Below are positions 11,164-33,344 of a stretch of DNA of 64,000 nucleotides, one piece after another (within the stretch, counting starts at the first letter, position 1; every line of letters begins with the position of its first letter). Both the position numbers and the translations under genes were made by a program. The stretch spans positions 39,383-103,382 of the forward strand of contig JBMNVB010000005.1 of assembly GCA_050946575.1 (NCBI GenBank), written 5' to 3'. The notes beneath the pieces are model-generated. The model saw only the letters and a list, made by a program, of their open reading frames with translations. It ran no database searches and had not been told where the DNA came from. The DNA is from Anaerovoracaceae bacterium (GTDB lineage: Bacteria > Bacillota > Clostridia > Peptostreptococcales > Anaerovoracaceae).

Positions 11164-11440
11164 GACGCGGCGGCGGTCTTGTACGCATGCCGGCCGGCTG
11201 AGCGGCTGCGGCCGCGATCCGTGTCGGCGGAAGTCCGGTCAGCGGGCGGCAGCCGGGATACGATGAGCGGCGGCCGGGTTGCGATGCAGGACGCGCATCA
11301 ATGCGGAAGTCCTGTCCCGGGATGCTGCGAATGAGAAAGAGATCCGGGGCGGGCTGCGGATATGATGCGGCCCCGGGATGCGCTGAACGGGATCCGCGGC
11401 AGAAGTTTCGCGGATGCACCGGCCCTGACCAGCGGGGAAA

Positions 11441-11468
11441 CACCGAGCATATATGCCGGTGCTTTTTT
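11441..11468 (+). terminator. Intrinsic terminator-like hairpin
   Basis: CACCGAGCATATATGCCGGTG hairpin followed by CTTTTTT. Confidence 0.6.
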
Positions 11469-11475
11469 AATTGGA

Positions 11476-11505
11476 CAAAATGGATGGGGATCCCCATCCA
11501 TTTTG
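11476..11505. repeat. 30-nt perfect palindrome with GGATCC core, followed by a T-run
   Basis: CAAAATGGATGGGGATCCCCATCCATTTTG reads the same on both strands. Followed by GTCATTTTTTCTTTTT. Confidence 0.9.
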
Positions 11506-11597
11506 GTCATTTTTTCTTTTTGCAGCGGTCGGAGAACTGACGATCTGACCGGAGGCCGGATACTCGGGCCCGGGGCGGGTTCCTGTCCGGGGCCGCG

Positions 11598-11809
11598 GAA
11601 ACAGGAATCCGCATTTTTGGGTGGGGTATTTTGAAATAGAGAAATTTCTCCACCCAATTTCCAACGTTTATCGGGCATTGATCCGGCGAAAAACGCGATT
11701 TCCCGATAATCCGTCCGGATCGATGCCTGCAGCCCAGTAAAAAAGGTGGGGAGATTTGTATATACGAAATTACCCCACCATTTTTGCTCATTCTCCAGAA
11801 AATGGAAGG
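11598..11809 (+). repeat. MITE-like triple-hairpin repeat element, copy F1 (left end diverged)
   Basis: Shares GGTGGGGTATTTTGAAATAGAGAAATTTCYCCACC .. GGGCATTGATCCGG .. GGTGGGGAnATTT..ATTACCCCACC ATTTTTGCTCATTCTCCAGAAAATGGAAGG with the four other copies. Confidence 0.85.
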
Positions 11810-11901
11810 CTGCGAGGCCCCCAGCACCGTCCCGACCCCGGCCGAATCAATGCAAAATCCCGCGTCGCAGCCTTGTTCCGGCTCCGAAAATCCGGATCGG
11901 C

Positions 11902-11985
11902 CCGGCCGAAATCCAGGAATGAGCCTGGCGCGCCGCCCCGACCCCGGCCGAAATCCAAGAATGAGCCTGGCGCGCCGTCCCGACC
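11902..11985 (+). repeat. Two 42-nt tandem 'solo left-end' copies of the element terminus
   Basis: CCGGCCGAAATCCA(G/A)GAATGAGCCTGGCGCGCCG(C/T)CCCGAC x2. The third repeat continues into full copy F2. Confidence 0.8.
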
Positions 11986-12204
11986 CCGGGCGAAATCCGG
12001 GAATGAGCATTTTAGGTGGGGTATTTTGAAATAGAGAAATTTCCCCACCCAAATTCCAACGTTTATCGGGCATTGATCCGGCAAAAAACGCGATTCCGCG
12101 AAAATCCGACCGGATCAACGCCTGAAACCCACAAAAAAAGGTGGGGAAATTTTCATATATGAAATTACCCCACCATTTTTGCTCATTCTCCAGAAAATGG
12201 AAGG
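11986..12204 (+). repeat. MITE-like triple-hairpin repeat element, copy F2
   Basis: Near-identical to F3 and to the reverse complements of 32781-32996 and 33070-33286. Confidence 0.9.
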
Positions 12205-12233
12205 TCGCGAGGTCCGCGGCGCCGTCCTGATCC

Positions 12234-12433
12234 CGGCCGAAATCCAGGAATGAGCATTTTAGGTGGGGTATTTTGAAATAGAGAAATTTCCCCACCCAAT
12301 TTCCAACGTTTATCGGGCATTGATCCGGCGAAAAACGCGATTCCGCGAAAATCCGGACGGATCAATGCCTGAAACCCACCAAAAAAGGTGGGGAAATTTT
12401 CATATACAAAATTACCCCACCATTTTTGCTCAT
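12234..12433 (+). repeat. MITE-like triple-hairpin repeat element, copy F3 (right end truncated)
   Basis: Same architecture; homology ends after CCCCACCATTTTTGCTCATT. Confidence 0.9.
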
Positions 12434-12609
12434 TTGCCCTTTTTTCCGCCCCCCCGGGCCGGGCCGCTGACCCGCCCCATCGGACCATGGCTCTGCATTT
12501 TGCTTTTCCGTCCCCCCGGACCGTGGTCCCGCGACCTGCCCGACCTGACCCCGGCACCGCATACGCTCTCCAGAGTCGCCGCAGAGCCCTATCCGGAGCC
12601 CGAAAACAG

Positions 12610-12666
12610 TTGACGCAGGCGGCCTGCACAGGTATAATCGAAATTAGTTTGATAATCAAAGTAATT
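12610..12666 (+). promoter_or_regulatory. Consensus sigma-A promoter (TTGACG-17-TATAAT) with an overlapping 25-nt palindromic operator (FabT-box-like)
   Basis: TTGACG 12610-12615, TATAAT 12633-12638. AATTAGTTTGATAATCAAAGTAATT at 12642-12666 has 11 of 12 arm positions complementary around A12654. Confidence 0.65.
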
Positions 12667-12677
12667 ACTGTCACGAA

Positions 12678-12935
12678 CCGGCCTGCGCCCGTCACGAGCG
12701 GAGCACCGGACCGGAGAAAAAGGACCCGGCCCGAGCCCAACACGAGCGGAGCACCGGACCGGAGAAAAAAGACCCGGCCCGAGCCCCGAACGAGCGGAGC
12801 ACCGGATCGGAGAAAAGGACCCGGCCCGAGCCCAACACGAGCGGAGCACCGGGCCGGAGAAAAAGGACCGGCCTGCGCCCGTCACGAGCGGAGCACCGGA
12901 CCGGAGAAAAAGGACCGGCCCTCGCCCGAAAACGC
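12678..12935 (+). repeat. Five tandem 47-48-nt GC-rich repeats in the fab leader region
   Basis: ACGAGCGGAGCACCGGACCGGAGAAAAAGGACCCGGCCCGAGCCCAAC-like units start at 12694, 12742, 12790, 12837 and 12884. Confidence 0.85.
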
Positions 12936-13038
12936 TTAGGAGCCAAGAGCCGAAGAAGCTGAGGGGCTCGGAATCCGACAGGCGGAAGCGCGAAGGATCG
13001 CAGAGGCGGAGACCGGATCCGGAACAAAGGAGCGAATT

Positions 13039-32732: not shown

Positions 32733-32780
32733 ACCCGCGGCTCTGCGGGAATAGTCGGCCGTGTTCTGGGCTCCGCGGTC

Positions 32781-32996
32781 TTCCATTTTCTGGAGAATGA
32801 GCAAAAATGGTGGGGTAATTCCGTATATGAAAATTTCCCCACCTTTTTTGGTGGGCTGCAGGCATTGATCCGGACGGGTTTTCGGAAAATCGCGTTTTTC
32901 GCCGGATCAATGCCTCGAAAACGTTGGAAATTAGGTGGGGAAATTTCGCTATTTCAAAATACCCCACCTAAAATGCTTATTCCTGGATTTCGGCCG
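32781..32996 (-). repeat. MITE-like triple-hairpin repeat element, copy R1 (inverted relative to F copies)
   Basis: The reverse complement aligns end to end with 11986-12204, with scattered substitutions. Confidence 0.9.
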
Positions 32997-33069
32997 GGAT
33001 CGGGGTGGTGGACAGCGACCGATAGCCGGCGAAACTCGGACAGCCGGCGGCGCTCAGGGCTCTGAGGGC

Positions 33070-33286
33070 TTCCATTTTCTGGAGAATGAGCAAAAATGGT
33101 GGGGTAATTCCGTATATGAAAATTTCCCCACCTTTTTTGGTGGGCTGCAGGCTTTGATCCGGACGGATTTTCGGAAAATCGCGTTTTTCGCCGGATCAAT
33201 GCCTCGAAAACGTTGGAAATTAGGTGGGGAGATTTCGCTATTTAAAAATACCCCACCTAAAATGCTCATTCCTGGATTTCGGCCGG
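33070..33286 (-). repeat. MITE-like triple-hairpin repeat element, copy R2
   Basis: Same as R1. One arm of the central stem is mutated (GGCTTTGATCC). Confidence 0.9.
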
Positions 33287-33344
33287 GCCGCTACGGACTG
33301 CCGCTCGCTGCTCCGCAGCCACCCGTCCACAGTCCCGGCACAAG

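Follow-up and report, generated by a model that had tools for sequence, protein, structure and literature searches.

An array of paired palindromes between cyaB and fabK of an Anaerovoracaceae bacterium probably belongs to an undescribed family of non-autonomous repeats

The intergenic region between the CYTH gene cyaB and the fabK gene in an Anaerovoracaceae bacterium (GenBank assembly GCA_050946575.1) is filled by an array of three direct copies of a non-coding unit built from two near-identical palindromes. The DNA analyzed, called the window here, is a stretch of 64,000 nucleotides from contig JBMNVB010000005.1 (positions 39,383 to 103,382), which is contig C5 of the assembly (G000) at an offset of 39382. 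The array probably represents an undescribed family of non-coding, non-autonomous palindromic repeats that resembles both repetitive extragenic palindromes (REPs), with their clusters known as bacterial interspersed mosaic elements (BIMEs), and miniature inverted-repeat transposable elements (MITEs). The family would have been spread by an enzyme acting in trans, with transcription termination or insulation as a likely side effect. An earlier sequence-only reading of the window had described the copies as MITE-like and had added that the family was not one it recognized. The latter view is correct, and the MITE label is not established.

The region that holds the array (11164 to 13038) is 1875 bp long, compared to a median gene spacing of 31 bp in the genome, and its unusual size had been pointed out from the letters alone. 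Profile searching with nhmmer located three direct copies at 11601-11808, 11985-12203, and 12232-12437, in agreement with the three copies of roughly 200 bp first proposed. An independent repeat search of the window returned a 232-nt direct-repeat family (n = 3) in which identity to the reference was 89% and 78% and the starts were 395 and 247 apart. It also returned inverted arms at the copy ends of 48 to 49 nt that were 75 to 78% complementary, close to the ~48 nt and ~75% expected. The pattern GGTGGGG-N21-CCCCACC, which corresponds to the two hairpins per copy with 7-bp stems and 21-nt loops that had been claimed, begins in the array at 11620, 11745, 12015, 12140, 12262, and 12387. These are six of its eight matches in the window; the other two lie in a second, inverted array (~32.8 to 33.3 kb), where two more hairpins fall beyond the mismatch limit of the pattern search, and shuffled sequence gave no match. 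The stems usually reach into the A/T-rich "loop," often to give ~12 to 15 pairs with loops of 5 to 9 nt, though not in all copies. The CCCAC-A6/7-GGTGGGG segment that allows alternative pairing, the central octamer stem (GGCATTGATCCGG / CCGGATCAAYGCC), and the two 42-nt repeats were all found as well. The period between the second and third copies is 247 bp rather than the 248 bp reported before.

The whole assembly (1.51 Mb, 18 contigs, 93% complete) carries 38 full copies, distributed over 19 loci and seven contigs, plus one copy cut by a contig end. The possibility that the element was confined to two loci, which would have pointed to simple local duplication, is therefore contradicted by the genome-wide count, and the repeats form a genuine dispersed family. 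End to end, the unit measures about 190 bp, and its linker brings this to 247 to 310 bp. It is built from two near-identical palindromes of 35 bp (76 in the 38 units), each with a GGTGGGG/CCCCACC clamp, an A/T-rich center, and flanking A and T tracts. The distance between the palindrome centers is 125 ± 0.5 bp in every copy (38 of 38). The palindromes enclose the conserved linker TTCCAACGTT, then a central hairpin that varies, and then a further conserved linker; the first linker is represented by AAATTCCAACGTTT and the second by GCAGCCCAC-A6. Outer inverted ends (GAATGAGCA / TGCTCATTC), conserved in most copies, close the unit, and the distance from AATGAGCA to TGCTCATT is 186 to 187 nt in every one of the 38 copies.

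Little or no variation was seen among the 38 copies in the two GGTGGGG and the two CCCCAC(C) segments, in AACG within the linker CAAATTCCAACGTTT, or in the A-run and T-run that precede and follow the right palindrome. The GGCATTGATCCGG central stem occurs in the major subfamily only, and minor subfamilies have other small hairpins in its place. This octamer stem, which had been described for each of the window copies, is also lacking in relatives and does not define the family. The right module, A5-7 / GGTGGGG...CCCCACC / (A/T)T4-6, has the form of an intrinsic terminator. Folding energies of its hairpin are -13 to -23 kcal/mol by itself and as low as -30 kcal/mol when the A6 and T5 on either side are included.

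All 19 loci are intergenic, in gaps of 490 to 1875 bp, and the neighboring genes are convergent at 7 loci, divergent at 5, and tandem at 7 (3 co-directional and 4 antisense). Element orientation agreed with the local direction of replication, judged from GC skew and gene strand, at 11 of the 19 loci, which is the level expected by chance. Single copies are found at 7 loci, and the remaining loci are arrays of two to four. The array period is either 247 bp, with a 28-nt linker, or ~300 to 310 bp, with a ~90-nt linker. The linkers are homologous across loci, as had been suggested for those of the window array. Most arrayed copies (25 of 31) have their closest relative within the same array, and therefore the arrays grow or are homogenized locally. 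In several arrays, the first copy is of a divergent type with the left flank AACAGG. Pairwise identity among copies averages 78% and reaches 97% at most, and several subfamilies can be distinguished.

Relatives of the unit were found outside this genome, at a level of divergence that nucleotide searching did not reach. BLASTN had been put forward as a way to count copies in the genome and in its relatives. The genome copies were obtained by profile search, and BLASTN of the unit against 40 relatives gave no match; a profile hidden Markov model (HMM), and then a covariance model, was required to detect relatives in the sister species. The signature GGTGGGG-N19-23-CCCCACC-N3-TTTGCTCAT was not present in other representative genomes (185,579 species) or in JGI metagenome contigs. 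An exact 21-mer search of the same species genomes gave one chance match, in Domibacillus, and plasmid and phage collections contained no match to the element. Rfam scans of the locus at permissive E-values yielded chance matches only (for example, 6S at 23.7 bits compared to a gathering score of 46.4), and Rfam scans of the sister-species copies yielded no match on the elements. The family is thus unrecognized, as first stated, and it is not itself Correia, BOX, RUP, or ERIC, the elements to which it had been likened.

The nearest named FabK proteins, with 81 to 82% identity, come from metagenome-assembled genomes of Anaerovoracaceae and "Eubacteriaceae," and the protein collection contained no FabK with identity between 82% and 100%. 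In the sister species the CYTH-fabK synteny is kept with the same promoter and operator, and the gap is 182 bp compared to 1875 bp here. The 1.7 kb of repeats was therefore gained in this lineage, at a site that is too diverged in the sister species for the empty site to be defined exactly. A weak match of the profile HMM upstream of the sister's CYTH gene proved to be a homologous element in which the parts follow the same order and the stems are GGTGGTGC/GCACCACC. The same-genus sister species G002 has at least 15 full dispersed copies with these stems, which are intergenic wherever this could be judged. A covariance model (R1) built from the G002 copies only recovered the copies of the present genome with E-values down to 2.7e-14. 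Among 151 genomes, five were positive with R1, and those of other genera were G158 (seven hits), G090 (one hit), and two weaker genomes; an order-wide sample of 200 genomes added two weak single matches. The superfamily is small and patchy and, besides this genome, is represented in the sister species and in a handful of other genera within the bacterial family.

In the other genera the stems are entirely different (GGTACTGA, ACACTGTGAAT, ATGTTGCTAA, and GATAGAAACA) and pairing is retained. G158 has at least three stem types in one genome. The unpaired linkers TTTCAACGNTTGCGGGC and CGCTGCAGCCC are conserved, and TTTCAACGNTTGCGGGC and GCAGCCC are kept across relatives. Palindrome spacing is 125 bp in 11 of 15 G002 copies, 123 to 125 bp in G158, and 121 bp in one G090 element. 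MAFFT mis-registered the stems of hairpin segments from different genomes, and pairs were counted instead on centered, ungapped segments. In 30 such hairpins, six stem positions were 93 to 100% paired (four of them in 30 of 30), with three to five pair types each. Cells changed on both sides numbered 140 compared to 35 to 53 in slid controls, and 77% of cells overall were paired compared to 43 to 49% in the controls; hairpin centers were picked by best pairing, which favors the unslid register. Identity between arms was 0.69 for left versus right within an element and 0.38 between genomes. Covariation in the stems, which the sequence-only reading had proposed to look for, is thus present between genomes. 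Within this genome it was not detected, as the stems are invariant in the 38 copies, and within G002 it was weak (13 of 500 shuffles).

The layout of the array and its boundaries is as follows, with positions in the window.
11164 to 13038 (1875 bp), no strand assigned: oversized cyaB(CYTH)-fabK intergenic region, without a credible gene by the list of open reading frames (ORFs) and a codon-usage caller.
11476 to 11505, plus strand: terminator of the CYTH gene from a terminator scan, a loop-less 30-nt perfect palindrome (AAAATGGATGGGG followed directly by ATCCCCATCCATTTT) and then a T-run, with the stem GGATGGGG/CCCCATCC.
11601 to 11808, plus strand: copy F1, a divergent "founder" with the degenerate left end AACAGGAATCCGCA and palindromes at 11620-11654 and 11745-11779 (nhmmer, 217.5 bits).
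11809 to 11900, plus strand: long GC-rich linker of the ~90-nt type with one ATCAATGC octamer inside, from a flank alignment of all copies.
11901 to 11984, plus strand: two 42-nt direct repeats (11901-11942 and 11943-11984; repeat families D3 and D4).
11985 to 12203, plus strand: copy F2, a full unit (nhmmer, 241.7 bits), with the parts listed next, placed by motif coordinates except for the central stem.
11985 to 12000, plus strand: leader of F2.
12001 to 12009, plus strand: left end of F2, GAATGAGCA.
12015 to 12049, plus strand: left palindrome of F2.
12052 to 12071, plus strand: conserved linker of F2, AATTCCAACGTTTATCGGGC.
12069 to 12081 paired with 12110 to 12122, plus strand: central stem of F2, from folds.
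From 12128, plus strand: CCCAC-A7 of F2, running into the right palindrome at 12140-12174.
12175 to 12188, plus strand: T5 run of F2 and TGCTCATTC.
12188 to 12203, plus strand: right extension of F2, CTCCAGAAAATGGAAG.
12204 to 12231, plus strand: short GC-rich linker of 28 nt that gives the 247-bp period; the same linker is found in a four-copy array on contig C6.
12232 to 12437, plus strand: copy F3, the last of the array, without the right extension and with palindromes at 12262-12296 and 12387-12421 (nhmmer, 222.6 bits).
12610 to 12666, plus strand: promoter of the fab operon (TTGACG-17-TATAAT; 11 of 12 matches in a promoter scan) and its palindromic operator, TAGTTTGATAATCAAAGTAATT.
32780 to 32998, minus strand: family copy in the second, inverted array (nhmmer, 241.4 bits; also matched by the covariance model).
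33069 to 33287, minus strand: family copy in the second, inverted array (nhmmer, 243.2 bits; also matched by the covariance model).

The array is thus placed between the CYTH terminator and the fab promoter. The promoter and operator, which are conserved in the sister species, lie outside the element and form the downstream boundary of the array. The nearest relative of F1 is at a different locus. Linkers homologous to 11809-11900 separate copies elsewhere, in the arrays on contigs C1, C3, C7, and C9 that have ~300- to 310-bp periods. The 42-nt repeats, which had been taken for solo left ends, each consist of a linker end and the first 8 nt of a left end (CCCGGCCGAAATCCAGGAATGAGC) followed by unrelated GC-rich sequence; they carry linker plus GAATGAGC. 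The CYTH terminator palindrome looks like the element palindrome minus its A/T center, and a genome-wide search for other loop-less palindromes of this kind found none besides 11476-11505. Five tandem GC-rich units of 47 to 48 nt (ACGAGCGGAGCACCGGACCGGAGAAAAAGGACCCGGCCCGAGCCCAAC), at 12677-12934, separate the fab operator from the start codon of fabK. They give a 5' leader of ~370 nt, compared to 22 nt between operator and ATG in the sister species. Short-read assemblies of other samples end inside the repeats, at window positions 11679, 11847, and 12700, and the shared part is 100% identical.

The interpretation that we favor, with somewhat better than even confidence, is that the units belong to an undescribed palindromic repeat family of the kind introduced above. 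Such units would have spread by means of a trans-acting enzyme that recognizes the hairpin or palindrome together with a conserved flanking motif, and that enzyme may now be lost, may be unassembled, or may be of an unrecognized type. The arrays could then have expanded via unequal recombination or slippage between units. Judged by their form and fold, the A-tract-hairpin-T-tract modules are putative bidirectional intrinsic terminators or insulators between transcription units, which would explain why the elements are tolerated only between genes. Insulation between the CYTH terminator and the fab promoter would be harmless or useful.

Several observations weigh against this interpretation. 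Y1_Tnp (PF01797; REP-associated tyrosine transposase [RAYT] and IS200 type), DDE_Tnp_1, and rve domains are absent from the assembly, which extends to the whole assembly the earlier remark that no transposase is nearby; at 93% completeness, a cognate gene could reside in the missing part. There are three tyrosine recombinase genes, and they are on contigs without copies. Target-site duplications were not found at the flanks of the 38 copies, including those at single-copy loci, and the element boundaries are blurred by variable outer extensions, and no sharp edge could be defined. No two copies are identical, which leaves recent mobility without support, and all five of the other assemblies of this species match the locus with 100% identity. 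The 125-bp spacing and the constraint on stem sequence are stronger than selfish or neutral repeats usually show, and such strict constraint may reflect a specific host function. A longer element with the same ends, in which a cognate transposase might have been expected, was not found in the assembly: all 75 of the 75 matches to the end motif lie inside known short copies.

Candidate movers of known types were considered and rejected. A DDE transposase or tyrosine recombinase does not fit, as there are no DDE genes and the recombinase genes are not near copies. A RAYT/REPIN system was set aside because this genome has no Y1 gene, and the Y1 genes of G002 belong to ordinary IS200 copies with unrelated ends. 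PF01797 is also absent from genomes G158, G090, G089, and G162. G002 has two Y1 genes with shared IS200-type flanks and with hairpins of opposite polarity (CACC...GGTG). The two IS200-like copies of G002 are diverged (L061, contig C30, 1310-2050; L063, contig C5, 1290-2000) and encode Y1 proteins of 163 and 178 amino acids. Their end hairpins are CACCC...GGGTG / CCACC...GGTGG followed by TTATGATT, and one of the copies lies ~150 bp from a twin-hairpin element. Avoidance of GGTGGGG outside the elements, as might be expected of a toxic or recognized site, was likewise rejected (27 observed compared to 21 expected).

The family shares features with several known repeat systems. REPs are extragenic imperfect palindromes of 21 to 65 nt that occur in many copies, singly or in mosaic clusters with linkers, have terminator and mRNA-stabilizer activity, and carry a GT[AG]G tetranucleotide 0 to 2 nt 5' of the hairpin foot (PMC6006769). 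The 35-nt extragenic palindromes described here likewise occur in many copies and in mosaic clusters with conserved linkers, in a genome with several such families, and they lack target-site duplications, as REP, BIME, and REPIN repeats do. GTGG, one of the two canonical tetranucleotides, is found at the base of the stem both here and in G002. However, GTGG is paired within the stem base (G-GTGG-GG here and G-GTGG-TGC in G002) rather than placed at the foot, it is missing from the G158 and G090 stem types, and no RAYT/Y1 gene accompanies the repeats in this assembly, G158, or G090. The unit is far larger than a REPIN, with its two palindromes at a fixed distance of 125 bp and a conserved core, and the host is a member of the Clostridia. 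The MITEs Correia of Neisseria and RUP of Streptococcus pneumoniae are similar in being non-coding, 100 to 250 bp long, bounded by terminal inverted repeats, dispersed between genes, and able to form long hairpins if transcribed, with terminator or promoter activity possible. They differ in having a TA target-site duplication and the ends of a parent insertion sequence (IS), neither of which is found here, and there is no sequence relationship between them and the present family. With no RAYT and with neither target-site duplication nor parent element, the family is therefore filed as a member of neither the REP/BIME nor the MITE group.

BOX of S. pneumoniae resembles the family in its conserved end modules, variable middle, tandem modules, intergenic position, Gram-positive host, and lack of a known transposase. 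However, BOX repeats boxB internally within the element, whereas here whole units and linkers repeat, and BOX has no twin identical palindromes at fixed spacing and no sequence similarity to this family. The palindrome-associated transposable elements (PATEs) derived from IS200/IS605 have similar subterminal hairpins at both ends, hairpin sequence that varies while structure is kept, a short motif beside the hairpin that could serve as a guide or cleavage site, and no target-site duplication. They differ from the present elements in three respects: this genome has no Y1 transposase, the elements show no orientation bias with respect to replication (11 of 19 loci), and the hairpins of the G002 IS200 copies have the opposite polarity.

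The strict 125-bp spacing and the sequence invariance within a genome support two rival explanations, a phased platform for protein binding or recombination and a structured RNA. The first of these, to which we assign a low probability, is that a dimeric protein, which could be a nucleoid or partition protein or a site-specific recombinase, binds the palindromes as duplex sites and that the arrays are phased platforms or products of site-specific recombination. Each palindrome looks like a lox/FRT-type site in having arms of 13 bp on either side of a 9-bp A/T spacer, and a distance of 125 bp, or ~12 helical turns, would place the two sites on the same face of the helix, where they could be bridged. 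In arrays with the 247-bp period, palindromes recur every 125 or 122 bp. The spacing is conserved across genera while the intervening sequence is not, the elements are indifferent to orientation, and the arms are conserved in sequence rather than covarying (GGTGGGG, TTT, AA, and CCCCAC(C) are invariant in the 38 copies), with covariation in G002 only weak. The greater likeness of left and right arms within an element (0.69) than between genomes (0.38) also fits, as do the three tyrosine recombinases encoded by the genome. No candidate protein is linked to the elements, however, and the recombinase genes are on contigs without copies; the three or more stem types of G158 would call for more than one binding specificity, and inner arm positions are often mismatched. 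A comparably small chance is given to the twin-palindrome module being a new system instead of selfish DNA in decay, either a hairpin-guided mobile element with an enzyme outside Y1_Tnp, DDE_Tnp_1, and rve or a phased platform for binding or looping by a host protein that would organize the DNA between genes. Here the relevant observation is the core TTCAACG / GCAGCCC between palindromes set those ~12 turns apart, with stems replaced in step between genera. The full covariation of the hairpins between genomes, together with the conserved unpaired linkers, the constant length, and the terminator-like right end, would also suit a structured non-coding RNA with three stem-loops, in which the right hairpin and U-tract form the terminator and the arrays are tandem small-RNA genes. 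That the unit is a gene for such an RNA, or part of one, nevertheless seems a little less plausible again. A promoter scan found no sigma-70-type promoter within or before the units, no Rfam family matched, and orientation relative to neighboring genes is random. Moreover, twin long hairpins invite misfolding (RNAalifold pairs the left arm with the right arm), the nearly symmetric elements score on both strands with the covariance model, and the central hairpin is not conserved between subfamilies.

The proposal that the units are mobile MITEs kept only part of its footing. Inverted repeats of 49 nt with 75 to 78% complementarity and outer ends GAATGAGCA / TGCTCATTC, small size, lack of coding capacity, dispersal between genes, and the lack of the repeats at the orthologous site in the sister species are what would be expected of a classical MITE, that is, a deletion derivative of a DDE-type IS moved by a transposase that binds the terminal inverted repeats. 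The remaining expectations (target-site duplication, a longer element with the same ends, and a DDE_Tnp_1 or rve gene in the assembly) were not borne out, and the lack of identical or near-identical copies gives no sign of a recent burst. In addition, the inverted-repeat signal comes mostly from each end being itself palindromic, and in the superfamily the ends change completely while internal linkers stay, which is the opposite of the usual MITE pattern. It therefore seems improbable that these are classical MITEs. The least credible explanation, which can be regarded as very improbable, is that an intergenic segment was simply duplicated in tandem at this locus or that the 262-amino-acid ORF on the minus strand at 11507-12295 is a real gene. 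Array-mates are each other's closest relatives, and public gene calls list a 262-amino-acid product across the array, without a Pfam hit. The 19 loci on 7 contigs and the relatives in other species contradict mere duplication. The ORF fails codon-usage scoring, passes through the repeated palindromes, and is probably a spurious call; the codon-usage gene caller predicted no gene in 11164-13038.

Other repeats are abundant in the genome, and all repeat families have GGTG...CACC-type stems and an AACGTT motif in common. Family B is a ~170-nt palindrome with outer arms GTGGCGGCCG / CGGCCGCCAC and inner arms GCACGCAAAAATTCCAACGTTT / AAACGTTGAAAAAATTGCGTGC that has the CAAATTCCAACGTTT module and, in some cases, a right end of TTGCTCAYT in common with the twin-hairpin element. 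In family C, 12 to 16 units of ~51 bp are arrayed in tandem, each a GGTGACAG-loop-CTGTCACC hairpin plus the spacer GGAGCGGATTTTGAACGTT. Family D (contig C1, 99203-99647) has ~100-bp units with AATAACTGGCA / TGCCAGTTATT hairpins. The sites of families B and C in this assembly are as follows.
Family B, contig C7: 503-593 and 1770-1864.
Family B, contig C10: 503-593 and 782-872.
Family B, contig C18: 284-374.
Family B, contig C4: 31513-31591.
Family B, contig C1: 139142-139230.
Family B, contig C8: 61569-61661 and 64963-65053.
Family C, contig C7: 6619-7459 and 13428-14189.
Family C, contig C8: 48868-49512.
Family C, contig C1: 174505-175402 and 221745-222367.
Family C, contig C2: 30635-31250.
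Family C, contig C11: 12817-14165, and many contig ends.

The octamer GCATTGAT/ATCAATGC, which had been called hyper-abundant, is in fact the commonest octamer in the genome, with 890 copies on both strands (~0.6 per kb). No consensus extends beyond the octamer itself, which is enriched between genes, where 33% of its copies occur compared to 12% of bases; examples in the window are at 11675, 12070, 12317, and 12361. Only ~57 copies are within the twin-hairpin family (A) and family B, and the octamer is rare in sister-species loci (~0.1 per kb).

Of the 48 gaps of at least 700 bp in the genome, 33 consist largely of multi-copy repeats. In this compact 1.5-Mb genome of a gut member of the Clostridia, most long intergenic regions are thus hairpin-repeat arrays. 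The arrays have practical consequences, in that they break short-read assemblies, with contigs ending within arrays, and yield spurious gene calls such as the 262-amino-acid "hypothetical protein." If the twin-palindrome module were a new system, the same machinery would act on the other hairpin-array families in the genome. It is mainly in Proteobacteria that hairpin repeats with a defined mobilizing enzyme (REPs with RAYTs) have been described. The family described here offers a test case for how such repeats spread and are retained, as it combines strong constraint with the lack of a RAYT, a DDE transposase, and target-site duplication. If the units are bidirectional terminators, they would provide ready-made insulators between operons.

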